Positions 7,292 through 47,814 of a stretch of 64,000 nt of DNA are shown piece after piece; position 1 is the stretch's first letter; the number at the start of each line of letters is the position of its first letter. Source of the stretch: Alphaproteobacteria bacterium. Lineage in GTDB: Bacteria; Pseudomonadota; Alphaproteobacteria; RF32; CAG-239. The DNA is taken from positions 9,979-73,978 of the forward strand of contig JAHHRI010000001.1 of assembly GCA_020025875.1 (NCBI GenBank), in the 5' to 3' direction. The translations under genes were made by a program, and so were the position numbers. Below the pieces are notes generated by a model that was not told the origin of the DNA, searched no databases, and worked only from the letters and a program-made list of their open reading frames with translations.

Positions 7292-7463
7292 TACTTACGC
7301 ATCCTCATATATCCGAAAGTCAGTTATTTAGAACGTTTTAATCATAATCAAACCGTTTGCAAAAACAAGCGTGGATTAGATTTTATACACTATTAACGAT
7401 TTGTATTGCTAAAACAGCTAAAAACCATTATATTTTGCATAATGATTTATTTTCGAGGACTAT

Positions 7464-8144: not shown

Positions 8145-8157
8145 ACCGAATGCGCGG

Positions 8158-8472
8158 CTAATCTTCCTCATCATCAATCGGGGTTTTGGCAAACAAAATT
8201 TTCCATATCTGTTTGCGAAACATCCAGAGGTTAATAACCCCCAAAACAACCATCAGCGAAGCAAACAGATACAAAATATAATACCAACCGAGTTCGGCGG
8301 CATTCATCATCACTTCCTGATTGGTAAAACGCAAAAAACTGACCGCTGCCGCCGTCACAATAAATGAGATCATAAACGCTGCCAGCCAAACTTTGCGGAT
8401 AATGACCTTATCTGCCATCAGAGAAGTCAAAATATAAATTAAAAACAGAGAAATAAACAAATAGAATTCCAT
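8158..8472 (-). CDS. Small integral membrane protein (104 aa)
   Basis: Three predicted TM segments; no family recognised. Confidence 0.4.
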   Translation of the reverse strand: MEFYLFISLFLIYILTSLMADKVIIRKVWLAAFMISFIVTAAAVSFLRFTNQEVMMNAAELGWYYILYLFASLMVVLGVINLWMFRKQIWKILFAKTPIDDEED

Positions 8473-31350: not shown

Positions 31351-32796
31351 TTATCTCCTCCAGAAATTTCTGGTAAAGACCACCAGAACAGTTAAAACTT
31401 CCAAACGTCCGAGCAGCATGGTAGCGCTCAACACGTTTTTTTGCACGCCGGACATCCAAGCGCAATTACCGTCAGGACCGATAGATGCCACCACCCCCGG
31501 ACCGGAGTTGGTTATACAAGCCACGACGGCGCTGAATGCGGTTGCAAAATCCATCCCCGACAAGGCAAGCAACAGCGTCGAAAATATAATTGTTGCAAAA
31601 AAAGCCCCAACCATGACCAACACCGACGAAACGGCAGCCGATGAAATGGTGTATTGTTTGACCTTCATCGGCACCACCCGATTGGGATCAACCGCCGTTT
31701 CTAAAGATTGCCGCAAATAGGACCCAACCACTTGCCAACGGAATATCTTGACAGATCCCGAAGTGGACCCCGTACAACCGCCGGTCATTGCAAAAATGAT
31801 AAACAGTGTCTGAAATTCCACCCCCCAAGCCAGATAATTGACAGATGTCAATCCGGTAGTTGTCACGATTGAAATGATATTAAACGAGGTATAACGAAGT
31901 GCCGTCCAAAAATCGCCGTAAACATCGTTGTAAACCAGCCACAGCGAACTGCCGACGATATAAACAAACAGCACTTTCAAAAAACTGACCACCTGTTCGG
32001 TGCGCAGCGACTGCCGGAATTTGTTTTGCAACAACACAATGTAAAAAGTCATCGGCAAAGCGCCGATAACCATAAAGATGGATATAACAACTTCTATGTC
32101 CACGTTGTCATAAAACAAAATAGATTTGTTTTTAGTGGAAAAACCGGCGGTTGAGATTGTGGACATGGCATGATTGATGGCGTCAAACCAGTTCATTCCC
32201 GCCCAGTAGAGGCATATGGCGCACAAACCGCACAAAAAGAAATAAACCCAAAAAATGCGTTTGGCAATATAGTGAAATTTCGGCATAAATTTATCATTAA
32301 AATCCGAACTTTCTCGCTGAAACATCTGCATTCCGCCGATTCCCAGAAACGGGAGCAAGGCCACTGCAAACATAACAATCCCCGCCCCGCCCATGGCCGT
32401 CAGCATCGACCGCCAAAGCAAAATGGCATTCGGCTGCGCCTCAATGTTGTTCAAAATTGTTGCGCCTGTCGTAGACAAACCGGAAACCGCCTCAAACAAA
32501 GCATCATAAAAATGATCGGTGCTGCCGTACAGCATAAACGGCACCGCCGCCAACAGCGACATAACAATCCAACTGGTTGTCGTCAGCAAATATCCCTGAC
32601 GAATACTGATGTTTTCAACCGGCGCGCGATTGGAAAGAAACAGCGAAAGCCCGATAAAAAGGCAAAAAAGGGACGAACTGAGAAACGGCGACCAAGACGC
32701 AGAAGTATCATAAATATCATAACCGGCGACAATCAGCATGGCAGCCCCCAAAATGCTGATAAAATAGCCGTTAATCATCAGGACAATCTGCCACAT
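31351..32796 (-). CDS. trkH: TrkH/KtrB-family potassium uptake protein
   Basis: 481 aa polytopic membrane protein with repeated M1-P-M2 selectivity-filter-like segments (…TTGAT…, …TAGFS…, …TTGLT…, …SGPG…). Confidence 0.85.
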   Translation of the reverse strand: MWQIVLMINGYFISILGAAMLIVAGYDIYDTSASWSPFLSSSLFCLFIGLSLFLSNRAPVENISIRQGYLLTTTSWIVMSLLAAVPFMLYGSTDHFYDALFEAVSGLSTTGATILNNIEAQPNAILLWRSMLTAMGGAGIVMFAVALLPFLGIGGMQMFQRESSDFNDKFMPKFHYIAKRIFWVYFFLCGLCAICLYWAGMNWFDAINHAMSTISTAGFSTKNKSILFYDNVDIEVVISIFMVIGALPMTFYIVLLQNKFRQSLRTEQVVSFLKVLFVYIVGSSLWLVYNDVYGDFWTALRYTSFNIISIVTTTGLTSVNYLAWGVEFQTLFIIFAMTGGCTGSTSGSVKIFRWQVVGSYLRQSLETAVDPNRVVPMKVKQYTISSAAVSSVLVMVGAFFATIIFSTLLLALSGMDFATAFSAVVACITNSGPGVVASIGPDGNCAWMSGVQKNVLSATMLLGRLEVLTVLVVFTRNFWRR

Positions 32797-32810
32797 AATC
32801 CGCTGTTTCC

Positions 32811-33692
32811 TTATTGTAAAGCCACGCGATCGGAAAAGCCGCGTTCAACCAAAACCTTATTAATACTCACGCCGTTAACAAAACATTCTCCGGTCGCGAC
32901 ATTGTCTGCCGTATAAGCCAAAATCCGGCAACTGACGATTTCGCCTTTCAGCGCGTCACGCAAAAATACGGCGGCTTTCACCCCTCGCGAGCTTCGCGGG
33001 TTGGAATAAATGCCGTAAAGAAACATATATCTGCCACCCACTTCCATTTCGTTGGCATTATAAATTTTAACTTCTCCCGAAATTTCCTCCGGTTCATCGA
33101 CATAACGCAAAACGTCGCCCTCTTCCTCGGAAACTTTTTTAACAATCACCGGTTTATTTTCAAACAACAACTCTTTGTTTTCCGAGGGCTGTTCGACAGA
33201 GGTGTCCGCAACCGGTGCGCCCACTTCTTCGTTAACCGGCATTTGCGGCACCGCCGGCGTCAATGCCACCACGTCACCGGCCTCTTCAGCCAAAATATCC
33301 ACCCGTTGCGGGCGGGCTCCGGAAGCGGCCTTAAACATTTGCCGCCGAGTTTCTTTGTAGCTCGGCGCCACTTCCACCAACCGATCGGTTCCTTTGCCGG
33401 GCTTTGACGCCAATACGGGGATATCGTTAATCAGCTCAGACAGACGGTCGGAAAACTTAGTCAAATCCATATCTTTGCTACGTATTTTTTCCAGATACCA
33501 GCGGTGCACTTCCGTCGGTTGCGCTCCGTAATACAGCGGAACACAATATGCTGCTGCCACAAGCAAAATCAGCACCGGATAAACCGGTTTGCGAAACGGA
33601 TAAGTAAAAAATGACACCGTCTTATGAACAACCGCTCCCCAGCCGCTTGGCGAACGCAGGTCGTTGTCCTCTCGTTTTTTTAAGAAAAACAT
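32811..33692 (-). CDS. Membrane-anchored hypothetical protein (293 aa)
   Basis: N-terminal TM anchor, Pro/Glu-rich linker, C-terminal ~100-aa domain of unknown type (possibly OB/SNase-like). Confidence 0.4.
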   Translation of the reverse strand: MFFLKKREDNDLRSPSGWGAVVHKTVSFFTYPFRKPVYPVLILLVAAAYCVPLYYGAQPTEVHRWYLEKIRSKDMDLTKFSDRLSELINDIPVLASKPGKGTDRLVEVAPSYKETRRQMFKAASGARPQRVDILAEEAGDVVALTPAVPQMPVNEEVGAPVADTSVEQPSENKELLFENKPVIVKKVSEEEGDVLRYVDEPEEISGEVKIYNANEMEVGGRYMFLYGIYSNPRSSRGVKAAVFLRDALKGEIVSCRILAYTADNVATGECFVNGVSINKVLVERGFSDRVALQ

Positions 33693-33767
33693 AGCTTTCC
33701 CCTATGGTTAAATCCTTTAGCTTTTAAGCTAAACGGTAAGCGGATAAAATTCAAGCAAAAAGGACGA

Positions 33768-34640
33768 CTAGTACACGGCTTTAACGATAAAGTCCGGCAG
33801 TTCGGGCAAGGCAGATGCGCCGGCCGCCCCTTTATGCCCGCCGCCGCCGAACCGAGCCGCAATTTTAGAAACGTCCACATCTTTTTTGGCAGAATAAAAA
33901 GAAAGATTCCAACGGCGGTTTTTATTCATATAAAAATTGATCATCACGTCATAATCGCCGATACGGTCAAAAGTATCAAAAAAAGTGGAACGCCCTTGCG
34001 GCATATTGGCACAAATGCACTTTAACCCGTCAATTTCCGCTTCAAACGCCATACTGCGCACCAAATGATGGTTGCGTGCATTAATCCAAGCCACAATCCG
34101 CTCCCCTTGTGCTATCATTTGCTCCACGTCGAGCCGACCGGCAAACAGTTTTGTCCACACCGGATCCTGAGGCCGATTCTGCCCAAGCGACTGCATGGCA
34201 TATTCAAACGGCTGCACCCGCCGATCGCTTAAATCAAAAATATCGTGCTTGGCCAACAAAGCGACTCCGAGCGGCAACGGACGCTCCGGATAATAATATT
34301 CCCACGACAGCTCAATCGCCGCCGTGCCAATCCGCCGAAGCCCTTTAATCGGTTCCGCTCCGGCATCCAATTTCATTTCATATTCCTTGATCACCGAAGC
34401 ATGATGATCAATCCAAGTAAAATCTTTTCTTTTGCTTAGATCAAACATATAGTCGACCGGCAGGGCAAAATCGCACACAACAATCATCTCATGACGTTCA
34501 ATTTCATCATAGGGAATGTCCATATCATGGTTTAACCCCAACAATTCAATCTCCGGATACACACTTTTAACAATGGCTCCGGATCCCTTTCCGTCATGAT
34601 CGGCAATATGATATATACACAGCATTTTTCTTCTCCTCAC
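33768..34640 (-). CDS. DHH-family phosphoesterase (NrnA-like oligoribonuclease/pAp phosphatase)
   Basis: DHH motif (YHIADHDGKGSG), DHHA1-like C-terminus with GGGH; probable start MLCIYH at ~34625. Confidence 0.65.
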   Translation of the reverse strand: MRRRKMLCIYHIADHDGKGSGAIVKSVYPEIELLGLNHDMDIPYDEIERHEMIVVCDFALPVDYMFDLSKRKDFTWIDHHASVIKEYEMKLDAGAEPIKGLRRIGTAAIELSWEYYYPERPLPLGVALLAKHDIFDLSDRRVQPFEYAMQSLGQNRPQDPVWTKLFAGRLDVEQMIAQGERIVAWINARNHHLVRSMAFEAEIDGLKCICANMPQGRSTFFDTFDRIGDYDVMINFYMNKNRRWNLSFYSAKKDVDVSKIAARFGGGGHKGAAGASALPELPDFIVKAVY

Positions 34641-34641
34641 A

Positions 34642-35433
34642 CTAAAAAAACAGCGTCATTCCGTCAAAGGCAGGGGCAACATTTTCCGGCGTCATCCGAT
34701 TAATCTGCTCAAAATCGCATTCCACGGCCATATGATTAATCACTGCCCGTTGCGGAGCAATCCGCTTAATATCGCGCATAATTTCTTCAAAACCGGCATG
34801 ATACTTGCCACCCTCCACCGTTGTCAACGGCACCACCATCACTTTCACCGGTTGGCGGATATAGGCAAAAGCTTCTTCCTCAATTTCTCGATAATCTGCA
34901 ATATAAACCATCTCCCCGTCATTAAAAACATATCCTGTCGTTGGCATATTGTGCCCTTTCAGCCGGATCGGCGTCACTTTCAGCTCATTGTTGATCATAA
35001 ACGACTGATAATGTTTGATCGGGTTGGCAATCAGGCTTGGGCAGCTACTGATATTGTTGGTATGTTCACGGGTGGCCAGCAGATAGGAAAAACGATTTTT
35101 TATTTCTTGCACAATCTCATCGGCGGCATAAAAATCGAGACTGGTTCCCACGGCCCGATTAATTTCCCGCAACTCATCTATGCCGTGCAGATGGTCGGCA
35201 TGCGCATGGGTGTAGACAATGCCGTCCAAGCGACGGATATCGGCATTGAGCAGCTGCATTCGAAGATCGGGGGAGGTGTCGATTAAAATCCGCGTATGCG
35301 CATACTCCAAACACGAGGTGGTCCGACTGCGGCAGTTTTTTCCGTTGGTCGGATCGCATACCCCCCAACCGCAGGTAACGGAAGGCACACCGGGGGCGGC
35401 ACCACTGCCGAGAATTGTCAGTTTATAGGTCAA
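34642..35433 (-). CDS. MBL-fold metallo-hydrolase (PhnP-like)
   Basis: HxHxDH motif THAHADHLHG; 263 aa. Confidence 0.7.
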   Translation of the reverse strand: MTYKLTILGSGAAPGVPSVTCGWGVCDPTNGKNCRSRTTSCLEYAHTRILIDTSPDLRMQLLNADIRRLDGIVYTHAHADHLHGIDELREINRAVGTSLDFYAADEIVQEIKNRFSYLLATREHTNNISSCPSLIANPIKHYQSFMINNELKVTPIRLKGHNMPTTGYVFNDGEMVYIADYREIEEEAFAYIRQPVKVMVVPLTTVEGGKYHAGFEEIMRDIKRIAPQRAVINHMAVECDFEQINRMTPENVAPAFDGMTLFF

Positions 35434-36224
35434 AACCGATATCTCCCTTTGTCGCTGGCCTTGCGAAACAGAGTGTAAAAATTCTCCGACGTCATCTTGG
35501 CCATTTCTTCAAACGATACTTCTTTTATCTGTGCCAATTTTTCTGCCACAAAACGGACATTGGCAGGTTCGTTGCGGTGCCCGCGGAACGGCACCGGTGC
35601 CAAAAACGGAGAATCTGTTTCCACCAGCAGCCGATTGAGCGGCAAATCGGCAAAAATTTCTCGCAATCCGCCGCTTTTATTAAAAGTGATAATCCCCGAA
35701 GCCGAAATATAAAACCCGATAGAAAGAGCAAACTCCGCCAGCCGCCGCGATCCTGAAAAACAATGAATTTCACCGCAAAAAGGCTGATCCTGATAGTGTT
35801 CGGTCAATATACCGATTGTGTCATCATCGGCATCGCGGGTATGAATAATAAGCGGCAGTTCGGTCTTTTGGGCTGCCAATATATGCTCGACAAACAGTTT
35901 GCGCTGGTTTTGCTTTTCGCTGTAATCATAGTAATAGTCCAACCCGCATTCGCCGATGGCAACGATTTTTTTATGTTTGCTTTTTTCCGCCAACTCTGCT
36001 GCGGACACATCCGGAAACTCGTCGGCATTGTGCGGATGAACACCTACCGCAGTGTAGATAAACGGATATTTTTCCGAAAGTTTCAACTGCTCGTCCAAAG
36101 TGTCGATACAATTACCGGCATTTAATGCCGCGGTAATGCCGTTTTCCTTCATCCGCAAGATAATATCATCCATATCATCTTCAAAATCGTTATAATCCAA
36201 ATGACAATGACTGTCGACTAACAT
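35430..36224 (-). CDS. tatD: TatD-family metal-dependent DNase/hydrolase
   Basis: MLVDSHCHLD start, conserved TatD His/Glu/Asp residues; 264 aa. Confidence 0.85.
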   Translation of the reverse strand: MLVDSHCHLDYNDFEDDMDDIILRMKENGITAALNAGNCIDTLDEQLKLSEKYPFIYTAVGVHPHNADEFPDVSAAELAEKSKHKKIVAIGECGLDYYYDYSEKQNQRKLFVEHILAAQKTELPLIIHTRDADDDTIGILTEHYQDQPFCGEIHCFSGSRRLAEFALSIGFYISASGIITFNKSGGLREIFADLPLNRLLVETDSPFLAPVPFRGHRNEPANVRFVAEKLAQIKEVSFEEMAKMTSENFYTLFRKASDKGRYRF

Positions 36225-36237
36225 TTTTTCCTCACAG

Positions 36238-37290
36238 TTACATAACTTTGCACAAATGACCGATAATATTTATCAGCGTTTCTTTCTTGTCCATGTTCAA
36301 AGCCTCCGTCTGCCGCAGCGTCCGGACGGCGTTTTCCCAAGCGCTGACCGTTTCCTCTATATGGCGAGAGGCAAGCACATGGTCGGCACAATACTTCAAT
36401 ATCAGCTCCGAAGCCAGCTCAAAACTTTCTTCCGTTTCAACGGCGGCATCCACCCAATTCAACAGGTCTTGCAATTTAAAACGGCTGCCGAGACCAATTA
36501 TCTCCGCCAGCTCACGGTAACGTTCCGTCGCACCGCAATCGGCATAATTCAAGGCTTTGCCGATACTGCCGGAAGCCAGTTGAACCACCTCCGCAATCGT
36601 CTTTTCCGTCAGTTCGGGACGATAGCGACGCAGCAAACAGCCAACCGCCTCGTCGGTCAGCGGCTTAAGTACCAACTTGCTGCACCGTGAGCGAATTGTC
36701 GGCAGCAGCTGTCTGACATTATGGCTAATCAGCAACAAAACACTTTTGACCGGCGGTTCTTCCAAAATTTTTAAAAGCGCGTTGGCGCTGGACAAATTCA
36801 TATCGTCAACACTGTCGATAATCACCGCCCGCCAACCGTCGTCAGAAGATTTTTTCGTTAGAAATTCATTAATTTCCCGCACATCGTCCACCCGTATAAC
36901 CGCGGATTTTTTCAGCCCCTTGAGTTCGCTCTCGTCAAACGCCGCGCCGTCTTTGATGGCTTTTAATACTTTCTTGCGATCTGCCTCAACAAAATTGCGC
37001 TCAATCACTTTCAGATCGGGGTGAGAACAAGAAGAAATCAACCTGTTGGCGGCACTGTTCGGATCTGTTGCCAAGGAAGCGGCGGGAAAACTTTTTCGCT
37101 GCCGCTCGTTAAGCAAAAAACGGGCAAACCGATACGCCAAGGTCGATTTGCCAATTCCCTTCACTCCGGAAATCAGCCAAGAATTGTGCAATTTGTTGGC
37201 ATTATAGGCGTCAAGAAGTGCTTTTTCCGCTTCTTCTTGACCTAAGAGGAAAAAATTGTTTTTAGGGTTCATCTGTTCATCGTCGAACAT
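36238..37290 (-). CDS. holB: DNA polymerase III subunit delta prime
   Basis: AAA+ clamp-loader fold, GVKGIGKSTLAYRFARFLL P-loop-like, SRC motif (RSRC). Confidence 0.8.
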   Translation of the reverse strand: MFDDEQMNPKNNFFLLGQEEAEKALLDAYNANKLHNSWLISGVKGIGKSTLAYRFARFLLNERQRKSFPAASLATDPNSAANRLISSCSHPDLKVIERNFVEADRKKVLKAIKDGAAFDESELKGLKKSAVIRVDDVREINEFLTKKSSDDGWRAVIIDSVDDMNLSSANALLKILEEPPVKSVLLLISHNVRQLLPTIRSRCSKLVLKPLTDEAVGCLLRRYRPELTEKTIAEVVQLASGSIGKALNYADCGATERYRELAEIIGLGSRFKLQDLLNWVDAAVETEESFELASELILKYCADHVLASRHIEETVSAWENAVRTLRQTEALNMDKKETLINIIGHLCKVM

Positions 37291-37937
37291 TATTTGCGCA
37301 TCAACCTTTCTTCCGTCATTTTAACAATTTCCCGATGCAGGCTCTCCACGCTTTGGTCTGCATTAAGCAGCACATAATGCGGCGAAGATTGGGCAATCTC
37401 GCGAAAACCGCGACGCAGATTTTCGTGAAACGCCAGTTCTCTGCTTTCAAACCGTGTTTCCTGCACGGCGGCAGAACCGTTACGTTTAAGAGAACGCGCC
37501 ACCCCTTTTGCCGGATCAATATCGAGAATAATCGTCAAATCCGGACGAAAATGGCCGACTGTGATGGCGTATAACTGATCCAACATTTCTTTCGGCAGCC
37601 GCTTGTCATAGCCGTAATATTGATAGGCGACGGTAGAATCGGCAAACCGGTCGCTAATCACCCACGTCCCCCGCTCCAGAGCAGGCAAAACTTTACTTTG
37701 CAGATGAATGCGCCGATCGGCATAATACAGCAACGCTTCTGCCACCGCGTCCATTTTATCTTTGTTGCCGGTGCACAAAATTTTGCGCAATTCTTGCCCC
37801 ACCTCGGTACCGCCGGGTTCTTTGGTCGTCATCACGTCAATGCCTTTGTTTTGCAGATACGCCGCCAACAATCCGATCTGGGTGGTTTTGCCGGATCCTT
37901 CGCCACCTTCAAGGGTTATAAAACATCCTTTACCCAT
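37290..37937 (-). CDS. tmk: Thymidylate kinase
   Basis: Real start MGKGCFITLEGGEGSGKTTQ at 37937; the ORF-track N-terminal extension is unlikely; start overlaps dacC stop. Confidence 0.85.
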   Translation of the reverse strand: MGKGCFITLEGGEGSGKTTQIGLLAAYLQNKGIDVMTTKEPGGTEVGQELRKILCTGNKDKMDAVAEALLYYADRRIHLQSKVLPALERGTWVISDRFADSTVAYQYYGYDKRLPKEMLDQLYAITVGHFRPDLTIILDIDPAKGVARSLKRNGSAAVQETRFESRELAFHENLRRGFREIAQSSPHYVLLNADQSVESLHREIVKMTEERLMRK

Positions 37938-37938
37938 T

Positions 37939-39084
37939 CTACTCCGTCCCCAAAAGAAGATACTTGATATTGCTGAGTATCCGCCCCCAAAAGCCCAATT
38001 TGCGAATGCTGTGATCGGCGTAAAGAGGCACAATCTTTGTCTTGCCGTCGGGAAGTTCTATCTTCACCTCACCCAACTTGTCTCCCTGCGCCACCGGTGC
38101 TTTCACCGGCTTGTCATAAACCGCCGTCAGTTTGACATCACGCGCCTGACTGCGGGCAATGGTCATCATCACATCTTTATTGACGACCAGATCAATCGAT
38201 TTTTCTTCTCCCATATAAACAGGAACGGAAACAATCCGTTGAAATTGTTTAAAAATCTTATAATTGTTAAATTCTCTGAACCCCCAGTTCATCAGCTTTT
38301 CGGCTTCTTCCGAACGTTCTTTGTTGCTCTTAAGTCCGGTCATAACGCCAATCAAGCGCCGATCTCCCCGCTTGACCGATGCCGTCAGACAAAAGCCGGC
38401 TTCCGCCGTATGGCCGGTTTTCAGCCCGTCGGCATCTGCCATCGAATAGAGCAAAGGGTTGCGGTTGCCTTGCAATATGTTGTTATAGGTAAAGCTTTTC
38501 TGAGAAAAGACGGAATAATATTCGGGAAAGTCGCGGATCAGTGCCTGCGCCAGTTTAGCCAGATCTTCGACCGACATCCGATGATCGGGGTGAGGCAAGC
38601 CGGTAGAATTGACAAAATGCGAATTTTTCAGCCCCAATTCTTGCGCTTTGTCATTCATCAATTCGGCAAAATCTTCCTCGGTGCCGGCAATATTTTCAGC
38701 AACGACAATGCACGCGTCGTTGCCGGACTGAATAATAATTCCTTTGATCAGGTTTTCCACGCTCACTTTGCTGCCGATGGGCAGGAACATGGTTGAACTG
38801 CCGCTGGCAGCTCCGCCCGTGCGCCATGCGTTTTCGCTGACGGTAAAAACATCTTCAAGTGACAACGTGCCGTCTTTGAGCTTGCTGAAAAGGACATAAA
38901 CGGTCATCAGCTTGCTCATCGAAGCGGGAGCCACCGGCGCAAAGGCATTTTCTGCCAAAAGATGTTCACCGGTGTCATAATCCATCAAAATCACATTTTT
39001 GGCTTTGGTTTCAAGAGCAGAAGCAGAGTTCGCCAACATTGCGCTCAAAACGGCAACAGACAACCATTTGGAATAAGTTTTCAT
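37939..39084 (-). CDS. dacC: D-alanyl-D-alanine carboxypeptidase (PBP5/6 family)
   Basis: Signal peptide MKTYSKWLSVAVLSAMLANSASA (start at 39084), SxxK (SMSKLMT), SGN and KTG motifs. Confidence 0.8.
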   Translation of the reverse strand: MKTYSKWLSVAVLSAMLANSASALETKAKNVILMDYDTGEHLLAENAFAPVAPASMSKLMTVYVLFSKLKDGTLSLEDVFTVSENAWRTGGAASGSSTMFLPIGSKVSVENLIKGIIIQSGNDACIVVAENIAGTEEDFAELMNDKAQELGLKNSHFVNSTGLPHPDHRMSVEDLAKLAQALIRDFPEYYSVFSQKSFTYNNILQGNRNPLLYSMADADGLKTGHTAEAGFCLTASVKRGDRRLIGVMTGLKSNKERSEEAEKLMNWGFREFNNYKIFKQFQRIVSVPVYMGEEKSIDLVVNKDVMMTIARSQARDVKLTAVYDKPVKAPVAQGDKLGEVKIELPDGKTKIVPLYADHSIRKLGFWGRILSNIKYLLLGTE

Positions 39085-39094
39085 TACAACTCCT

Positions 39095-40006
39095 CTAATT
39101 TTCAACAACATGTGCGGCAGGGATACCGAAATTTCGAATTTTTGCCTGAGTAACCAGCGCTTCTTCATGATACTTGTATGGCCCTACCCGCACGCGATAA
39201 AACATCCGGCCGTTGACTTCGGCTTTCAAAATATGTGCCGCGCCAAAATCGGCAACTCTTGAAGCCAACCGATCGGCGGCATTATAATTGGCAAAAGCGC
39301 CGGCTTGCACATAATAACCGTCCGCCAAAAAAGTCTTGGCATCATCATCAAACCCATCGTTTGCGGATGACCTCAGCGGCTCAATGGCAGGGGCTGCCGC
39401 TAGCGGAGCCACATCTTCGCCGATTTCGCTTTTGATGACTCGTTTTGTCGGCGCGGCGGAAACCTCCGACGCCAAAGCCTTTCCCGTCAGTGCCGCTTTT
39501 AGGTTTTTACTTTCCTTTTCCAACACTTCCACGCGAACTTTTGCCGTCCCTTTTTCCAAAAAGCCAAGCAGTTGAGCCACTTTTTTAGAAACATCGACAA
39601 TCCGGTTACGGGCATAAGGCCCCCGATCGTTAACACGCACCACCAACGAGCGACCATTTTCAAGATTGGTGATTTTGACAATGGAAGGCAGGGGCAACGT
39701 TCGGTGGGCGGCGGTCAGACTGTGCATATTATACTTTTCGCCGTTAGCGGTGCGCTTGGCATGAAAATCCGGTCCGTACCACGAAGCAACGCCCACTTCC
39801 GAATAGGCATAATCTTCTTTCGGATAATACCAACGTCCGAGAATCTTATAAGGATTGCCCACTTTATAGACACCGCCCTGACTTCTAATGGCGGAAGCCT
39901 GTTTCTGCGGCGGATCGGTCACCTCCGGAGAAGCGGTTTCACAACCGCTGAGAAAAACACACATCCCCGCGCAAAAAGCGAATATCTTCAGCTTGCTCAC
40001 ATTCAT
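39095..40006 (-). CDS. rlpA: Septal ring lytic transglycosylase RlpA (DPBB plus SPOR domain), lipoprotein
   Basis: Lipobox LSGC, RlpA double-psi beta-barrel motif GVASWYGPDFHAKRTANGEKY…VRVNDRGPY, C-terminal SPOR-like domain. Confidence 0.8.
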   Translation of the reverse strand: MNVSKLKIFAFCAGMCVFLSGCETASPEVTDPPQKQASAIRSQGGVYKVGNPYKILGRWYYPKEDYAYSEVGVASWYGPDFHAKRTANGEKYNMHSLTAAHRTLPLPSIVKITNLENGRSLVVRVNDRGPYARNRIVDVSKKVAQLLGFLEKGTAKVRVEVLEKESKNLKAALTGKALASEVSAAPTKRVIKSEIGEDVAPLAAAPAIEPLRSSANDGFDDDAKTFLADGYYVQAGAFANYNAADRLASRVADFGAAHILKAEVNGRMFYRVRVGPYKYHEEALVTQAKIRNFGIPAAHVVEN

Positions 40007-40389
40007 TTTTGTTCCTCAATCAACATTGCGCCGCATTTTATACTATTTTTTTTCTCTCGTAAAGCAGATATTTTAAAACGCCGACAGAACATTTCGGAGC
40101 ATACGACAATGCCCATCAAGCAACAACTCGACACATGACTTTGACTGTAACCGTTTGTTCAAAACCCGTATAAAAGCACTCTTTGTCAGGCTTGACACAC
40201 AGGGCTTGCGCCCCAAAAGACGAACACGCTGCCCAATATGCTTTGCTGCCCGATATGCGCCGTTTTTTGTTTTTTCAACCATATCTCGAAACCCAAAAAG
40301 CCATTGGCAAAAATGTTTTTTAAATTGTAAAAAAAATATTGTTGACATTCTTCATGAAATGCAATAGAACAATCCCAGTTTACAACACT

Positions 40390-40463
40390 TGCCCCATCGT
40401 CTAACGGCAGGACAGCGCACTCTGACTGCGTTAATCGTGGTTCGAATCCATGTGGGGCAGCCA
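40390..40463 (+). tRNA. tRNA-Gln (anticodon CTG)
   Basis: Acceptor TGCCCCA/TGGGGCA, anticodon loop CTCTGAC (CTG), T-arm GGTTCGAATCC, discriminator G plus CCA. Confidence 0.8.
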
Positions 40464-40471
40464 ATTAATGT

Positions 40472-40508
40472 AAGGGTTGCTTTTTTAAAGCAACCCTTCT
40501 GTTTTTTA
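40472..40508 (+). terminator. Rho-independent terminator after tRNA-Gln
   Basis: 11-bp stem aagggttgctt / aagcaaccctt, loop tttta, then TTTTTT. Confidence 0.6.
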
Positions 40509-40516
40509 AACAAATT

Positions 40517-40594
40517 CTCCCCTGCCTTTTTCACGCTGTCCCATTTCCCTCTGCCTTTTTCTCCCCTGCCTTTTTTCACACTGTCCCATTTTCC
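40517..40594. repeat. CT-rich direct repeats: ~32-bp unit CTCCCCTGCCTTTTTCAC(G/A)CTGTCCCATTT(T)CC twice with a partial copy between
   Basis: Copies at 40517-40548 and 40561-40594 read directly; partial CTCTGCCTTTTT at 40549-40560. Confidence 0.6.
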
Positions 40595-40864
40595 CCCGCC
40601 TTTTCAGCCTTCCGACGTCTGTTTGTCCCGTCCTCCGCCCAGTTTTGCTCAATAATCCGTCCGGCTTGGCTTTCCGTTTATCGTTGCCGCAAAAGCTTTT
40701 TTCGCATACTTATATCTTGTTGCGAAAGCTCCGCCGTGCAGAAATATCCCAATTTGACAACAGACTGTCTGATATGTTTGATTTTGCTGTTGCGTAATCA
40801 AAAAATTATGCTAGCTTGAAAAAAATATGTTTGTTTTATCATTTTATTTCTAAACGGAGAGCTT

Positions 40865-42199
40865 ATGGCTAATTTTACGGTAATTGAATTATTGCTGTTT
40901 CAATCATTGCTGATTTTTTTGAACGCGGTTTTTGCCTGTGCGGAGATAGCGGTCATCTCGGTCAATGAAAACAAATTAAACAAATTGTCTGAAGAAGGGA
41001 ACAAAAAAGCAAAACGGCTATTATCACTGATGGAGCAGCCGGCTAAGTTTTTGGCAACCATTCAAGTCGGCATCACTCTGGCGGGTTTTCTCGGCAGCGC
41101 CTTTGCCGCCGACAATTTTTCCGACCGCATTGTCGATTGGCTGATTGCCGCCGGCGTCACCCTTTCTCCGGCTAAACTGGATGTTATGGCGGTAATCGGA
41201 ATCACGCTTATTTTATCCTATGTCACACTGATCTTGGGCGAGTTGGTACCCAAAAGAATCGCCATGCAAAATGCGGAAAAAATCGGTTTGGCCATGTCCG
41301 GTCCAATTTACGGCGTGGCAAAGATATTTGCTCCTTTGGTGTGGTTTTTGACAATCTCCACCAATATCGTGCTCAAGCTGCTGGGTATCAGCCCCGAAAA
41401 CCATGACGAAAGAGTGACTGAAGAAGAAATTCGCATTATGATTGATGCGGGCAGCAAAAGCGGCGCGATTGACGACACGGAAAAAGATCTGCTTCACAAT
41501 GTGTTTGAGTTTAACGACACTTTGGCAGAAGAAGTTATGACACACCGCACCGAAGTCACTTTTCTTAATGCCGATGACACACCGCAAAAATGGGAGCGGG
41601 AAATGATAGACACGCGCTATTCGGTTTATCCGGTATTTCGCGGCAGCAACGACAACGTGATCGGTTCTCTTAGCATCAAAGATTATTTCAAATTCAAAGA
41701 TCTGGACAAAGAAGATATTTTGCGGCAGGCATTAAAACCGGTGCAATTCATTCCCGAATCGGTGCATGTGAACGATTTGTTTCAAAGTATGCAAAAAAGC
41801 CGCAATCATTTTGTGGTGGTGGTTGACGAATATGGCGGTGTTGACGGCATTGTCACCATGAGCGACTTATTGGAAGAATTGGTCGGAGATCTGGAAGATG
41901 ATATGACGGCACCGCCAAGCTGCCCCGACATTGAACAAGTGGGACAAAAGGTGTGGCGGATCAAAGGAGCGGCAGCCATCGACGAGGTAATGAAATGTAT
42001 CGGAGTTTCGCTGCCAAACAACGAATGCGAAACTTTCGGCGGATTCGTGTTATCGCTGATGGGCAGCATTCCCGAAGACAAGAACAACATCAAACTGGAA
42101 TATGGCAACCTAAAGATAAAAGTTATCAGCGCCAAAGGACACAGAATTGAAGACACGCTGGTGCAAATGAACGATCGGCCAATGTCGACGAATATCTAA
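40865..42199 (+). CDS. corC: CorC/HlyC-family (DUF21-CBS pair-CorC_HlyC) magnesium/cobalt efflux-associated membrane protein
   Basis: N-terminal 4-TM DUF21, tandem CBS domains, C-terminal transporter-associated domain; 444 aa. Confidence 0.8.
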   Translation: MANFTVIELLLFQSLLIFLNAVFACAEIAVISVNENKLNKLSEEGNKKAKRLLSLMEQPAKFLATIQVGITLAGFLGSAFAADNFSDRIVDWLIAAGVTLSPAKLDVMAVIGITLILSYVTLILGELVPKRIAMQNAEKIGLAMSGPIYGVAKIFAPLVWFLTISTNIVLKLLGISPENHDERVTEEEIRIMIDAGSKSGAIDDTEKDLLHNVFEFNDTLAEEVMTHRTEVTFLNADDTPQKWEREMIDTRYSVYPVFRGSNDNVIGSLSIKDYFKFKDLDKEDILRQALKPVQFIPESVHVNDLFQSMQKSRNHFVVVVDEYGGVDGIVTMSDLLEELVGDLEDDMTAPPSCPDIEQVGQKVWRIKGAAAIDEVMKCIGVSLPNNECETFGGFVLSLMGSIPEDKNNIKLEYGNLKIKVISAKGHRIEDTLVQMNDRPMSTNI

Positions 42200-42220
42200 A
42201 AGCAGACAAGCCGCTCGTTA

Positions 42221-42248
42221 CGTTGGGCAAACATCGGTTTGCCCAACG
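42221..42248 (+). terminator. Perfect 12-bp stem hairpin (cgttgggcaaac / gtttgcccaacg) just after the corC stop; no clear U-tract
   Basis: Inverted repeat read directly; followed by gcaaaaaag. Confidence 0.35.
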
Positions 42249-42444
42249 GCAAAAAAGACGGCAAAACTTCGTCTGAGCGCAAAACAGAAACGGCACTTGC
42301 TTTAAACAACCGAAAACATCGACGCAAAGAGCTGTTTTTGACTCTGCGGCAGACAGCTTTTATTTTGACAAAACCTTGTTTTAGCAGAAAAGCTAAACAC
42401 TCACGCCTTAAAAGCACAAAAAACCTCATAAAAAAAGACAAATA

Positions 42445-42472
42445 TTGACAAAATGGGTATAATGTCTATAAT
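42445..42472 (+). promoter_or_regulatory. Near-consensus sigma70 promoter TTGACA-16-TATAAT upstream of the 42511 gene
   Basis: TTGACA 42445-42450, TATAAT 42467-42472; GGTATAAT also present inside the spacer. Confidence 0.5.
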
Positions 42473-42510
42473 GCTCTTATCGATCGCAAAAAACAAAGAA
42501 GAGGTGCCTC

Positions 42511-43818
42511 ATGACAAATACGGACAATCAGCAAGAATCGGATGAGCAACAATTTGTTCGCTTAACACGGCCAGTCGTGCTTGATAGTGCGCTGCTAAAA
42601 GCCGCAATGACAAAAGATATTCTGAGCAACAATCCCGAATATGTATCGGATATTGCACAAAGATACAACCTAGATCCTCAGCAAGATCAGGCTTCCATCG
42701 CCGACAAACTTTATGAAGAACAGATCGACACAATTACGGAAATCTGCATTGCCAACACGTTAGACGAAAACATAGTTGCCGCTTACGAACTTTTGCAGAA
42801 CGTTTGTTATTTCAGCCCCGAAGATATACACTATATGCAAATGACAGAAGGCGAGAATCTGCCCTCAAACGTTACCCAATATATTAACGAACGTTTAAGC
42901 GGCGTATCGGAGCTGATGCCTGTTGTCGATTTTACCAACACCGTTAATGAGGCCATTTTATATTCGACCAACGACTGCCCCGATTTTACTTTATACAAAG
43001 CCAATCAGCTGAAAGAAAAATTTGACGAATGCAACCTCAAGCTAACCAATGAAGAAAAAGGAAAACTAAGCTTTATTGCTTCCAAAATGTACCGCAAACT
43101 GAGCCAACAAAACGTTTTTATGCAAGACAACGGCAGAGCTGTTGATTTCCATGAAAAGGAATGTTTGCATAAGACGCTGTCGCTTACCAGCGACTATAAG
43201 CTTATCTCCCACTGCCAGAACAGACTGCAAGACGCAAAAGACGAACAGGATATTATTAGCGCTTACCAATACGCGCTGAGCAAAAAGCAAAGCCGAAACG
43301 ACTTATACAAAATCAATGTGGCCTTATCCTCTTTGTATATCGACAAAACGTAGACCATCGGCTTTTTTAATGACAGATCCGTTAAAAAAATCTCTGCCGA
43401 CAGAGCTAAAAAACATCTGCTGAACGCTTATCGTTATGCTCATAAAGAAGATCGACCGCCTCTGTTAAACAAGCTTGCCAAAATCCATATGACGTTAGGC
43501 GAGATTCAAGAGTGGAAAAATATCAAAGAAGTTTTGGCAATGAAATTTCAGAAAGGCGAGGATCGTTGCCATACTCTAAATTCGATTGCCGACAAAACCG
43601 GAGATTGCGACTTTTACCGCAAAGCCCTCGAAGAATGCAAGCGCGCTCGGATGCCACAGGCAGATAAAATTCATATACAGGAAACAACTTATGAAAAAAT
43701 GGCTTTGAAAACCAAAGACCCGACGGTTAAACAAGAGGCAGAACAGCAGCTGGCAGAGATAAGAATACAAAAACAACAAATCTTTCGGCAACTGCTGAAC
43801 ACACCAAAAGAGAAATAA
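42511..43818 (+). pseudogene. Large hypothetical protein gene interrupted by a single in-frame TAG (43351-43353); frame continues open for ~155 more codons to 43818
   Basis: ORFs 42511-43353 and 43489-43818 are in the same frame with no other stop between them; combined ~435 aa, no known domain. Confidence 0.45.
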
Positions 43819-43853
43819 CCAACGGCACTTGGAGCAAATTTTTTACAAACCAA

Positions 43854-43880
43854 TTAAAGCCCTGTTCAGCAGGGCTTTAA
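43854..43880. terminator. Hairpin terminator (perfect 9-11 bp stem aaagccctg / cagggcttt, loop ttcag) serving the convergent genes
   Basis: Read directly; T-rich flank on the minus-strand side (ttggtttgtaaaaaa). Confidence 0.55.
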
Positions 43881-43901
43881 TTGATGATATGAGCAGATAT
43901 T

Positions 43902-44057
43902 TTATTTATCTTTGCCGCATTGGCAATCTTTGCCACATTGGCAATCTTCGCCGCATTGGCAATCTTCACCACATTGACAATCTTCGCCGCATTGGCAATC
44001 TTCACCACATTGACAATCTTCGCCGCATTGGCAGTTTGGATTATTGCATTTTCCCAT
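43902..44057 (-). CDS. Small cysteine-rich tandem-hexapeptide-repeat protein, 51 aa: MGKCNNPN(CQCGED)5(CQCGKD)2K
   Basis: Minus strand: AGGAGG SD 7 nt upstream of ATG (44057-44055), ORF ends at TAA (43904-43902), 15 Cys; near-consensus promoter upstream and hairpin terminator downstream. Not in the six-frame track as such (the track shows only a plus-strand shadow ORF 43829-44098). Confidence 0.7.
   Translation of the reverse strand: MGKCNNPNCQCGEDCQCGEDCQCGEDCQCGEDCQCGEDCQCGKDCQCGKDK
43911..44036. repeat. 7 x 18-bp tandem repeat (plus strand TTCGCCGCATTGGCAATC / TTCACCACATTGACAATC variants) encoding the CQCGED hexapeptide on the minus strand
   Basis: Units read directly. Differences between E-type units (GGC/GGT, TGC/TGT x2) are all synonymous in the minus-strand frame; E->K differences are confined to the two 3'-proximal units. 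Confidence 0.85.
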
Positions 44058-44091
44058 TTTTTTCCTCCTGTAATATTAAGCTGACATTATC

Positions 44092-44120
44092 AATATAGTC
44101 TGTTGCCGACAGACTGTCAA
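44092..44120 (-). promoter_or_regulatory. Near-consensus sigma70 promoter (minus strand) TTGACA-17-TATATT; spacer contains the palindrome GTCTGTcggcaACAGAC
   Basis: On the minus strand: cgTTGACAgtctgtcggcaacagacTATATTgataatgtcagcttaatattacAGGAGGaaaaaaATG; -35 = plus 44115-44120, -10 = plus 44092-44097. Confidence 0.6.
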
Positions 44121-44261
44121 CGAGAGAGCTTTGCGCAAGCCGGTTTGCTTCCTTCATCACCCCCATCCTGCACTTTGCAAACTCGCCGTCTGAAACATCA
44201 GCCAACCGGCAACAGCCTCCTCTGCCGTCAATGCCAAAATTTCCAACCGACACAAAGCAAC

Positions 44262-44291
44262 ACATTTATAGCAAAAAAGCACTGCCAAAGC
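44262..44291. terminator. Bidirectional terminator (A-run, agcactgc-caaa-gcagtgct, T-run) downstream of the OMP gene
   Basis: Read directly. Confidence 0.6.
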
Positions 44292-44318
44292 AGTGCTTTT
44301 TCTTGGGAACAAATCCGA

Positions 44319-45095
44319 TCAGAACAATACTTTCGCGCTTACGCCGAGGGTGTAACTGTAGTCAACATAGTCGCTGCCGTTGCCCCCCAGATAATAGTCG
44401 CCGAAAACGCCGACGGCAATATTTTCTTTAACAAAGTAGTTGGCTTCCGCCTCTGCCCACCATGTATTGACATTGGTACCATCCAAAACGAAATCGTAAC
44501 GGATACCGGCATCTACAGAGTATTTGGCATCGGCTTTGTGGAAACCGTTAAACCACGAATAAGCCATCGGGCGGTCTGCATAGTCAATTCGGCTATTAGC
44601 AGTAAACGAAGTGTAAGGCATCCAGCCATTTTGCAATTCGTAGCCCAATTTAACGTTGGCACTCAATTCTTTGTACCATCTATCATCATTATAACGATGT
44701 CCATACCAACTATGCGGATCAAATGTGTAGTAGGAAGCACCGACCTGAGCCAGCCAGTTGCCACGCTGCATGTTGTATTTAGCACCGATCAAATAATCAA
44801 AGTTGTGATCGTTGTTATATTCCTGATTGGTAAGACCTTCAAAATCGAACTGGTTGCCGATTTCCGCAACAACGGAGAAGTTGTCCGTAACCCCATAAGT
44901 GATTTCTTCGGATGCGCGAAAATCTTCCGCGGCGGCAACATCATGTTTCAGCGAGGTGCGTGCATATTGCAAAGAAGTATTTGACAATACCTTCCCTGCC
45001 CCCGGCAAATACATCGGAGCAGTAATATCTTCCGCATTCGCAACACCGGCAAACATAACGGCAGCGGTTGCCAAAAGCATAGTTCTATAGTTCAT
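44319..45095 (-). CDS. Outer-membrane beta-barrel protein, Omp25/Omp31 (Hbp/Pap31)-family-like, 258 aa
   Basis: Signal peptide MNYRTMLLATAAVMFAGVANA, aromatic-rich amphipathic beta strands, C-terminal …GVSAKVLF ending in Phe; SD AAGGAG. Confidence 0.6.
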   Translation of the reverse strand: MNYRTMLLATAAVMFAGVANAEDITAPMYLPGAGKVLSNTSLQYARTSLKHDVAAAEDFRASEEITYGVTDNFSVVAEIGNQFDFEGLTNQEYNNDHNFDYLIGAKYNMQRGNWLAQVGASYYTFDPHSWYGHRYNDDRWYKELSANVKLGYELQNGWMPYTSFTANSRIDYADRPMAYSWFNGFHKADAKYSVDAGIRYDFVLDGTNVNTWWAEAEANYFVKENIAVGVFGDYYLGGNGSDYVDYSYTLGVSAKVLF

Positions 45096-45218
45096 GTGAA
45101 GTCTCCTTAGTTATTAAAACTTTTGTGAATAAAATATATCACAAAAATACTGTATCAGATAATTCGGAGATTTCAACAAATAAAAATCGCTCACTCTCAT
45201 TTTGTGACATACAAAATA

Positions 45219-45845
45219 TTATAAGGCTCTGGCAGACTTGCGAAAAGATTGATTTTGTTTGTTTTTCATAAATCGAAGCAAAGTCATGCGATCGACTTTC
45301 AACTCTCTGGCAATTTGCGCTTTGGGCATCTTTTGTTCAAGCATGGTGTTGATATGTTCTTCTAAACCGGTCAGTTTAAGCTTTTTGTTGCAACGTCCCG
45401 TGGGGCGGCCAAGTTTTTTCCCCTCGGACTTGATTCGGCTCAAAGCCTCTTTCGTGCGTTGCGAAATCAAATTGCGTTCTATTTCTGCCGACAACCCGAA
45501 AGCAAATGCCAACACTTTGGACTGAATATCGCTGCCTAACCGATAGTTGTCTTTAATCGTCCATACTTGAGCTTCCGCATTGAGGCAATAATGCAAAATG
45601 GTCATCACCTGCAACAGGTTACGTCCGAGACGCGATATTTCCGAAGCGATTAAAATATCATTTTTGGTAAGTTTTTTTAACAATTTACCAAGCTTGCGTT
45701 GGCGAAAGTCGGTGGCGCCGGAAATGGTTTCCTCAAACCAGCGATTGATGATAACCCCGTTTTTTTCGGCAAATTGCCCAATTTCAAAGCGTTGGTTTTC
45801 CGTTGTTTGTTTGTCAGTACTGACTCTAATGTATCCGTATATCAT
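45219..45845 (-). CDS. Small serine recombinase (resolvase/invertase family, Hin/Gin/Tn3-resolvase-like), 208 aa
   Basis: N-terminal catalytic motif YGYIRVSTDKQ (Ser nucleophile), resolvase core, C-terminal HTH. Confidence 0.8.
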   Translation of the reverse strand: MIYGYIRVSTDKQTTENQRFEIGQFAEKNGVIINRWFEETISGATDFRQRKLGKLLKKLTKNDILIASEISRLGRNLLQVMTILHYCLNAEAQVWTIKDNYRLGSDIQSKVLAFAFGLSAEIERNLISQRTKEALSRIKSEGKKLGRPTGRCNKKLKLTGLEEHINTMLEQKMPKAQIARELKVDRMTLLRFMKNKQNQSFRKSARAL

Positions 45846-46070
45846 GATATATCCTTATAAGTTTAACGGTTGGTTCTCGTTATAAATTATAATTATATGT
45901 ATGAACGTACGGCAAAATAAGGTGTATTAAACGCCGATGTTTATAGAATGAGGCAACCAAAATGACCGCAAAAAACGTGAGCTTACGGCCGATATCCTCT
46001 GTTTTTTACTTGATTTTAGCCCAAAAACTGTTTTGATAAACAAACGCAAAAAGCAACAACGGGGTTAACC

Positions 46071-46511
46071 ATGTGGGAAGAATACGCTTATATCAGCCTG
46101 TTTGCCATCAGCTTCGGAGCAGCAACCGTTTGCCCGATCAGCTCTGAGCTGGTTTTCATTTCAATGATCGGAACAAACTTCAACCCCATCCTCTGCATTT
46201 GGACGGCGGCCGCCGGAAACTGGCTGGGCGGCATGACAACCTACGGCATGGGCAGACTGGGAAAATCGGAATGGCTGACAAAATATTTTAAAATACCCTC
46301 CGCACAACTGGAAAAAATCAGCAATTTTGCAGCCGGACACGGTGCCGCCACCGCTTTTTTCGGTTTCCTCCCCGCAATCGGCGATGTTATCGTTTTTGTT
46401 TTAGGTCTGTTGAGGGCCAATTTGCCACTCACCGCGTGTTCTATGTTTGTCGGAAAGTTTTTGCGCTATTGCTTGCTGGCTTATGGCATTTTACAAGGTA
46501 TGGAGTGGTAA
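46071..46511 (+). CDS. YqaA/DedA-like small membrane protein
   Basis: 146 aa, 4 TM, DedA-type core motif (…G…Y…GR…). Confidence 0.5.
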   Translation: MWEEYAYISLFAISFGAATVCPISSELVFISMIGTNFNPILCIWTAAAGNWLGGMTTYGMGRLGKSEWLTKYFKIPSAQLEKISNFAAGHGAATAFFGFLPAIGDVIVFVLGLLRANLPLTACSMFVGKFLRYCLLAYGILQGMEW

Positions 46512-46583
46512 ACCGTTTGCCGATACCCTTTCTTGCAGCAACAGATTTGACATATTTTTCACCACAAAAATATTTTTCATCAT

Positions 46584-46615
46584 AAAAAAAGCACGTCCAT
46601 TTAACGTGCTTTTTC
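46584..46615. terminator. Bidirectional terminator (A-run, gcacgt…acgtgc hairpin, T-run)
   Basis: Lies between the convergent YqaA-like gene and tRNA-Ser. Confidence 0.6.
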
Positions 46616-46619
46616 AAAT

Positions 46620-46709
46620 TGGCGGAGAGAGCGAGATTCGAACTCGCGGAAGGCTTGCGCCTTCGACGGTTTTCAAGACCGTTGCAATCAACCGCTCTGC
46701 CATCTCTCC
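46620..46709 (-). tRNA. tRNA-Ser (anticodon TGA)
   Basis: Reverse complement GGAGAGATGGCAGAGCGGTTGATTGCAACGGTCTTGAAAACCGT…long variable arm…GAGTTCGAATCTCGCTCTCTCCGCCA; anticodon loop CTTGAAA. Confidence 0.8.
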
Positions 46710-47256: not shown

Positions 47257-47814
47257 TTAAAAAGTATATCTGATACCTGCGGTTACTTCCATCAGATTAT
47301 CCAGATGCTTGGCGCCGATGTAGCTGTAACGCCCGACCACGCGTGCTGAAAAATTCTCGTTGAAATCATACTGCGCGCCGATACCTGCACGATAGCCAAG
47401 TCTTTGCTTATCAATATTGCCTGTTTTGTATTTGGCTTTCATATTATAATTTGCCATTCCGAGCGAACCGAGCAAATTCAAACCGTTGCAACCGATCGGC
47501 AGATAGCCGTAGGCATCCAGACCATAAGCATAAAACTCCGTCTTTACACGATATTCCGTTTTATCGAAAGATTTGGTTTCTGCCGACTGCTGGAAAAAGG
47601 CTTCCAAACTGGCGTAATGCGTTATCCAAGTACCAACGTTAACAGCACCGGAATTGTAGCTTTTTTTCGGTTCTCTTACCAGATCCTTATAGTCTGCGTG
47701 CGAATAGACATAATCCAAACCGATATAAGGTCTGAACTCTCTCTCCCAATCCATTGCATTTGCGCTTACGGAAAAAAGGCAAGCAACACCCGCTAACACT
47801 AATGTCTTTTTCAT
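47257..47814 (-). CDS. Small outer-membrane beta-barrel protein (OmpA-like 8-strand / Omp25-family-like), 185 aa
   Basis: Signal peptide MKKTLVLAGVACLFSVSANA, C-terminal …AGIRYTF. Confidence 0.6.
   Translation of the reverse strand: MKKTLVLAGVACLFSVSANAMDWEREFRPYIGLDYVYSHADYKDLVREPKKSYNSGAVNVGTWITHYASLEAFFQQSAETKSFDKTEYRVKTEFYAYGLDAYGYLPIGCNGLNLLGSLGMANYNMKAKYKTGNIDKQRLGYRAGIGAQYDFNENFSARVVGRYSYIGAKHLDNLMEVTAGIRYTF

Follow-up and report, generated by a model that had tools for sequence, protein, structure and literature searches.

Two tRNA genes whose 3' ends point at each other, with a patchwork of genes and a small recombinase between them, raise the question of whether the DNA they enclose came from elsewhere. 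We addressed this question for a 64,000-nucleotide stretch (the window) of an uncultured gut alphaproteobacterium (contig JAHHRI010000001.1), in which tRNA-Gln(CTG) at 40390 to 40463 on the plus strand and tRNA-Ser(TGA) at 46620 to 46709 on the minus strand bracket a segment of about 6 kb. An earlier note had read the segment as an accessory islet at an old insertion hot-spot. ARAGORN and Rfam placed both tRNAs where that note had them, with their 3' ends facing inward, and all the genes that it listed are present between them. Comparison with related genomes points to a different origin, which we consider probable: the segment is a native gene block, conserved in the clade, that was relocated to a hot-spot at tRNA-Ser and has partly decayed, and its recombinase is an invertase of the host.

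The comparison used contigs and loci of related gut alphaproteobacterial assemblies, designated by L numbers and labeled as human-gut metagenome-assembled genomes (MAGs) named "Azospirillum sp." The window's own lineage is thinly sampled: the only matches to it at 99.8 to 100% were three short Logan contigs (run SRR14298101). The content of the segment was annotated with ARAGORN, Rfam, Pfam, NCBIfam, PADLOC, PHROGs, and TRF.

Both flanks of the segment are syntenic in every relative examined. On the left is the housekeeping cluster tatD-holB-tmk-dacC-rlpA (35430 to 40006), and on the right are genes for an OMP_b-brl protein, UDG, a TPR-methyltransferase, RNHCP, a nitroreductase, and ackA. A metagenome scan with RlpA recovered lineages at 89%, 80%, 64%, and 60% RlpA identity in which these flanks are joined, in the order NitroR-RNHCP-TPR_MT-UDG-OMP185-mem117-tRNA-Ser followed by rlpA-dacC-tmk-holB-tatD. 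The synteny check suggested by the earlier note thus found the block between the two tRNAs missing in relatives where the flanks adjoin, and the empty site, with tRNA-Ser beside rlpA, supports that note's proposal of an insertion at a tRNA 3' end. Homology to the empty-site relatives (L101 and L119) stops at 40111 and restarts at 46614, 6 bp past the 3' end of tRNA-Ser, so that, measured against the ancestral rlpA/tRNA-Ser junction, the complete insert extends from 40112 to 46613. The empty site appears to be ancestral and the arrangement in the window derived, because the most distant lineages (RlpA identity, 60 to 64%) also lack the block there.

The gap between tRNA-Ser and rlpA in the empty-site relatives ranges from 217 bp to 1.29 kb and varies in length even between close relatives. 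It is nearly empty in L107 (217 bp), has no identified gene in L165 (523 bp, with its open reading frames [ORFs] left unexamined), and holds a single unrelated 301-amino-acid (aa) secreted protein in L119-type loci (1.29 kb). In L106, which belongs to the lineage at 89% RlpA identity, positions 1 to 5210 carry prophage tail-fiber, tail-fiber-assembly, and endolysin genes at tRNA-Ser(TGA), upstream of the gene for the 301-aa protein, and the prophage end closes with an exact 63-nt, attR-like copy of tRNA-Ser positions 28 to 90 (5148 to 5210). With this exact copy at the prophage end, tRNA-Ser(TGA) of the sister lineage is an active attB for phage. By its content across relatives, near-empty, filled with one unrelated gene, or occupied by a tRNA-integrated prophage, the gap is a general hot-spot, and the hot-spot part of the earlier note's proposal is borne out by the prophage end and its tRNA-Ser repeat. 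The window has no counterpart of the 63-nt repeat. Other tRNA fragments are found at this site in relatives. In L107, at about 9822 to 9870 within the gap, there is an inverted fragment resembling a tRNA 3' end (gcggagagcgggatttgaaccccgg), which may be the scar of an older integration or inversion. In L119 (7954 to 7976) and L165 (42 to 77), 23 nt and 36 nt, respectively, from the 5' portion of tRNA-Ser are repeated with 100% identity some 100 bp upstream of the complete gene; the window has no such partial copy.

The block itself was found at other locations. Its order is tRNA-Gln, a CNNM transporter, a TPR-like protein, a Cys-rich peptide, a 12-stranded outer membrane protein (OMP), an Mpi-family invertase, and a YqaA-like protein, and the same block in the same order is present in at least five related lineages (L001/L002, L081, L084 to L086, L087 to L089, and L095 to L098). 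The L001/L002 block shares about 80% nucleotide identity and an identical gene order with that of the window and has additional genes: one for an autotransporter, located after tRNA-Gln and before the transporter gene, a glutathionylspermidine (GSP)-synthase-like gene with small ORFs, and a gene for a 168-aa secreted protein. Three more lineages, recovered via the recombinase (86%, 80%, and 76% identity), share the core, with the autotransporter, the 164- to 168-aa gene, and the VTT-domain gene (that of the YqaA-like protein) optional, and one more, recovered via the 434-aa TPR-like protein, also has the core with optional genes. Across lineages the core runs recombinase-OMP-unknown and mostly on to the CNNM transporter; L095 is the exception, where other genes replace the transporter. 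At one end of the block, aspS-tRNA-Gln is found in L001, L002, and L087 (three loci in two lineages). Near the other end, L001, L002, L084 to L086, and L096 have a tRNA-Thr, whose 3' end points at the VTT end of the block in several relatives. None of the loci that carry the block holds any flank gene of the window. Because of this, and because aspS adjoins tRNA-Gln, we read the block as native DNA that was relocated with tRNA-Gln as cargo. The earlier note had pointed to tRNA 3' ends as classical integration sites, but tRNA-Gln is not an integration target here: it travels with the block, to which it is linked in L001, L002, and L087.

The composition of the segment is also native. The GC (guanine-plus-cytosine) content is 0.436 versus 0.466 for the window, a difference that reflects the larger intergenic share of the segment; the GC content at third codon positions (GC3) and the codon usage of its genes are within about 1.5 standard deviations of those of the window's other 58 ORFs, so that the check for deviating composition that the earlier note had put forward revealed none in the genes. 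According to that note, conservation of the same content across the family with native composition would speak against an islet. This is largely what we found, but the content is conserved at other sites. The claim of accessory or foreign content does not hold, since at least five related lineages keep these genes in this order and since the composition of the genes is native.

No signature of site-specific integration was found at the edges of the insert. Pfam, NCBIfam, PADLOC, and PHROGs detected no integrase, phage, or conjugation gene in the segment, as the earlier note had stated; PADLOC found no defense systems, and Rfam found the two tRNAs and nothing else. The direct-repeat check that the earlier note had also suggested was negative, with no copy of either tRNA 3' end within the window; over the window and the linkers, the best match to the tRNA-Gln or tRNA-Ser 3' end was 10 nt (P of about 0.05), which is at the level of chance. 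Homology to the block-carrying relatives begins at 40316, which leaves a window-unique left linker (40112 to 40315) that matched neither empty-site nor block-carrying relatives and whose best tRNA-like match was also 10 nt (P of about 0.05). The right linker (46509 to 46613), also unique to the window, contains a terminator hairpin. No repeat is common to both window junctions. We also considered a motif shared between the junctions of the window and those of the relatives, but found only AT-rich or terminator fragments and hence rejected it.

The copy in the window has decayed, as the earlier note had supposed: it carries a nonsense codon, and genes are missing. It is without the autotransporter, the GSP-synthase pair, and the 164- to 168-aa gene of the relatives, and a search for an autotransporter remnant in the CT-rich region of the window found none. 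The gene for the TPR-like protein (42511 to 43818, plus strand) is split by an in-frame TAG at 43351 to 43353, which the earlier note had pointed out. The stop is real: it is repeated in an independent Logan assembly, and the orthologues are uninterrupted, with 434 aa (range, 420 to 469 aa). Because the orthologues are intact, we interpret the TAG as a nonsense mutation and the gene as a pseudogene or split gene.

From these results, we propose the following course of events. The block would have had its ancestral position with aspS on one side and tRNA-Thr near the other, and in this lineage it would have moved to its present place, flanked by rlpA and the 3' end of tRNA-Ser(TGA). Such a move has three breakpoints, all of which would lie by tRNA genes, 5' of tRNA-Gln, 3' of tRNA-Thr, and 3' of tRNA-Ser, and it could have taken place as a single cut-and-paste event or as two nested inversions. 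We infer the mechanism, rather than demonstrate it, because no site-specific signature survives. In the course of the move or afterward, the block would have shrunk by the loss of the autotransporter, the GSP-synthase pair, and the 164- to 168-aa gene, and the TPR-like gene would have gained its nonsense codon. Matching identity levels and parsimony suggest that the block sits at aspS in the genomes with the empty site. The invertase would not have been the mover of the block.

The 208-aa recombinase (45219 to 45845, minus strand) consists of a Resolvase domain, with an N-terminal catalytic serine motif (YIRVST), and a C-terminal HTH_7 domain (Pfam). It scored 310.9 bits against NCBIfam NF009949 ("master DNA invertase Mpi family"; cut-off, 272), over model positions 1 to 199 of 203, and its best PHROG is "DNA invertase." The closest solved relative is the Gin invertase, with a full-length alignment; the Tn3 and gamma-delta resolvases rank behind it. 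These matches indicate that the enzyme is a full-length Mpi-family serine DNA invertase and not a mobility enzyme. Recombinases of the Hin/Gin/Mpi type invert DNA and do not integrate it. The earlier note was correct that a small serine recombinase is present, but the enzyme is not a leftover mobility gene, because it is a conserved invertase of the Mpi family. It is 76 to 90% identical across the block-carrying lineages. Homologues at 66 to 90% identity are very numerous, and the few with a named source come from Alphaproteobacteria or "Acetobacter sp." MAGs; those at about 70% identity occupy unrelated contexts without the block.

Mpi of Bacteroides fragilis inverts at least 13 dispersed regions (PMC5903667). 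By analogy, the invertase of the block probably acts in trans on invertible DNA elsewhere, as in phase variation of surface genes. We found no convincing inverted-repeat pairs around the invertase, in the segment, or in the whole window; the best pairs in the window lie inside housekeeping genes such as lpxB and were rejected. The Mpi core ARACGTWCGT has one match in the window, inside the coding sequence of the TPR-like protein, with a chance expectation of 37%, and it was also rejected. The spacer between the recombinase and the OMP gene is a fixed, conserved promoter with a leader hairpin and not an inverton. No inversion polymorphism was seen among two to four same-lineage assemblies per group (four groups, about 12 contigs) within 10 kb on either side. 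Inverted repeats of 20 to 26 nt were observed inside the autotransporter genes of relatives, in L084 (15749 to 15774 and 16545 to 16570), L002 (7242 to 7261 and 8696 to 8715), and L087 (16742 to 16764 and 16988 to 17010). Inverting the segment between them leaves no stops in L087, one in L084, and six in L002. These repeats could be a candidate target of the invertase or could have arisen by chance in a repetitive passenger domain.

Several observations weigh against a relocated native block carrying a host invertase. The flanks of the block differ among several lineages, which would also fit a block that is itself mobile. No single contig combines an empty rlpA/tRNA-Ser site with a block at another location. 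The linkers (204 bp on the left and 105 bp on the right) have no identifiable origin, and the right junction (46509 to 46613) is crossed by none of the independent Logan contigs, which break inside the segment. Finally, no invertible target of the invertase was found in the window or within 10 kb on either side of the gene in the relatives.

One alternative gives the invertase a larger part. It is kept beside the OMP and, in relatives, the autotransporter, and it could be the master switch of an undescribed phase-variation system in uncultured gut Alphaproteobacteria, whose activity near its own locus, for example at the autotransporter repeats or at sites on the block border, would also drive the rearrangement of the flanks, including the relocation seen here. 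We consider this combined proposal unlikely.

The variable flanks can also be taken to mean that the block is a small mobile cassette, moved by its own serine recombinase and inserted beside tRNA genes. One end adjoins aspS, DUF362, rlpA, or Lyase_1 depending on the lineage, and the other adjoins tRNA-Thr, tRNA-Ser, polysaccharide genes, or HAD/methyltransferase genes; the block ends adjoin tRNA genes, and the recombinase is present in the block every time. However, neither inverted nor direct repeats mark the ends of the block, an att-like duplication is absent, the junctions have no motif in common, and the recombinase belongs to a family that inverts and does not integrate. The occurrence of recombinase homologues at about 70% identity without the block, the core-like cargo (a tRNA and a lineage-wide OMP), and the native codon usage also argue against a cassette. 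Moreover, separate insertions at tRNA-Thr, as in L086 versus L084, account for much of the variation in the flanks. For these reasons we regard a self-moving cassette as quite improbable.

Beside tRNA-Thr, L086 differs from L084 and L085 by a strain-level insertion of about 5 kb (3100 to 8316) that carries AbiEii, an ankyrin protein, and other genes. By this comparison, the tRNA-Thr that flanks the block in the L084 to L086 lineage is a second tRNA hot-spot adjoining the block. A further case of variable flanks is L095, which is 99.4 to 100% identical to L096/L097 over 6 to 7 kb and then diverges abruptly at 5909 and 12875, on the transporter side and 54 bp past the VTT gene; the breaks reflect either structural variation between strains or chimeric metagenome assembly.

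Three other explanations fare far worse than a relocated native block. That the rlpA/tRNA-Ser position is ancestral and that other lineages moved or lost the block is very doubtful; nothing supports it directly, and although the polarity rests on a limited sample of lineages, the site is empty in four lineages, the two most distant among them, and the aspS-tRNA-Gln-autotransporter linkage is common to the divergent L087 and L001/L002. We give equally little credence to a chimera of the metagenome assembly that joined contigs at tRNA genes. The lineage is poorly represented, and the Logan contigs leave the right junction unspanned, but an independent Logan contig, L180, reproduces the left junction, spanning 32702 to 40581 at 100% identity (7.9 kb). 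A chimera would also need two precise joins that placed a 6.5-kb block exactly between two neighbors that relatives have side by side, and the junctions have no repeat in common. The classical islet of foreign accessory DNA at a tRNA, as proposed in the earlier note, is scarcely plausible either: it has in its favor the insertion at a tRNA 3' end, the lower GC content, the presence of a recombinase, and a CNNM gene whose nearest relatives outside the clade are from Clostridia and Treponema, but the gene set and order are kept in at least five related lineages, codon usage is native, integrase and att repeats are absent, and the OMP and invertase families are both widespread in related gut Alphaproteobacteria.

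The relocated block can be compared with known systems. Like tRNA-associated islands and hot-spots, the insert lies directly 3' of a tRNA at a site that is empty or differently filled in relatives; unlike them, it has no integrase, att duplication, or foreign composition and is a native block with its own tRNA-Gln. Translocation of a block by nested inversions at tRNA or rRNA genes is similar in the three tRNA-side breakpoints, the preserved orientation of the neighbors at the target, and the loss of genes, but no mediating repeats are visible in the 64-kb window. With Mpi of Bacteroides fragilis and with Hin, Gin, Cin, and Pin, the enzyme shares the small size of these serine recombinases and their layout, a catalytic domain at the N terminus and a helix-turn-helix at the C terminus, and no invertible segment was found flanking its gene, as is the case for mpi. 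It differs from Mpi in that its host is a gut alphaproteobacterium and not Bacteroides and that no inverted-repeat targets or inversion polymorphism were found in the comparisons made.

The remaining features of the segment are described from left to right. tRNA-Gln is followed by a terminator hairpin (40472 to 40498), and the other hairpins of the segment are likewise ordinary terminators sited between genes. The CT-rich direct repeats that the earlier note had placed after tRNA-Gln are a 45-nt unit present twice (40515 to 40604; TRF). This repeat is specific to the window, occupies the position of the relatives' autotransporter, and has no homologue in the fetched loci.

The transporter gene (40865 to 42199, plus strand; Pfam and NCBIfam) encodes an N-terminal CNNM/DUF21 domain, CBS, and CorC_HlyC. 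The earlier note had called it a relocated corC; it is relocated, but the name does not fit, since the protein is of the CNNM-CBS-CorC_HlyC type and not CorC/YbeX proper. It scored 117 bits against the CorC model (cut-off, 379), and the best model, PaeA, gave 237 bits against a cut-off of 500. By these scores, the protein falls short of CorC/YbeX proper and is best classed as a TlyC/PaeA-like transporter of the CNNM family that belongs to no assigned subfamily. Amino acid identity is 83 to 86% in "Azospirillum sp." gut MAGs, and the next best matches, at about 50 to 55%, are from Clostridia and Treponema. These nearest relatives outside the close clade, and not other Proteobacteria, hint at an old horizontal acquisition of the transporter by the clade ancestor.

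The TPR-like family is restricted to the clade, with six clusters at 90% identity and 46 representatives at 50% among 1.84 billion proteins. Its predicted structure is an all-alpha solenoid (pLDDT, 88.7) whose PDB matches are generic TPR folds with a TM score of about 0.3. The promoter of the gene (42445 to 42472) matches the consensus at 12 of 12 positions, and its -35 region is kept in relatives.

A promoter with 11 of 12 consensus matches lies at 44120 to 44092 (minus strand), before the Cys-repeat peptide gene (43902 to 44057, minus strand), so that near-consensus promoters noted earlier were confirmed at these two positions, both of the sigma-70 type. The peptide has 51 aa with 16 Cys and CQC motifs, MGKCNNPNCQC(GEDCQC)n, and the gene contains an array of seven 18-nt units encoding CQCGED (43908 to 44033), with a 36-nt period at 95% match; a Logan contig terminates inside this array. 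The orthologue in L001/L002 has 40 aa and is unexpanded with a conserved promoter, and the expansion is specific to the window. The peptide matched nothing in Pfam and nothing meaningful in NCBIfam, and it may be called metallothionein-like in composition. The 17-nt spacer of its promoter is a perfect palindrome in the window (GTCTGTcggcaACAGAC). In L001/L002, the spacer is not palindromic and only the -35 and -10 boxes are kept. We considered ACAGACTGT-type palindromes in the promoters of the transporter gene (the earlier note's corC) and the Cys-peptide gene as operators and rejected the idea, since the palindromes are not conserved in L001/L002, unlike the -35 and -10 boxes.

The 258-aa OMP (44319 to 45095, minus strand) had been called Omp25-like in the earlier note, a label that we do not retain. 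It has no OMP_b-brl (PF13505) match in Pfam, and the predicted structure is a 12-stranded beta-barrel channel (pLDDT, 84.2), with KdgM/NanC-type porins, a COG4313 channel, and FapF as the closest folds. An eight-stranded Omp25/OmpA-like protein sits outside the segment, at 47257 to 47814. The OMP family comprises 114 clusters, whose few members with a named source are from Alphaproteobacteria MAGs, and its more distant members occur without linkage to the invertase. The leader of the gene (45096 to 45176, minus strand) is highly conserved in six lineages and consists of a promoter (TTGAAA-16-TACAGT), a 10-bp hairpin, and a ribosome-binding site. The hairpin (TTTTGTG…CACAAAA) has a variable loop and one compensatory pair, consistent with a probable role as an mRNA-stabilizing or regulatory 5' hairpin.

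The last gene of the block (46071 to 46511, plus strand) encodes a YqaA/DedA-like membrane protein. The YqaA-like gene of the earlier note is therefore present, but its match to Pfam VTT_dom is below threshold (29.8 versus 33.9 bits). The protein is 72 to 73% identical in L001/L002 and is present in most, but not all, of the relatives.

The case itself is one of ordinary genome plasticity. It shows that a tRNA-bracketed segment bearing a recombinase can mimic a decayed island and yet be native DNA that has moved, which calls for caution when islands are predicted in MAGs. It also flags, in uncultured gut Alphaproteobacteria, a well-conserved Mpi-type invertase that is physically linked to surface-protein genes. 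If this invertase does drive phase variation, then surface switching in the style of Bacteroides would reach a second gut phylum.

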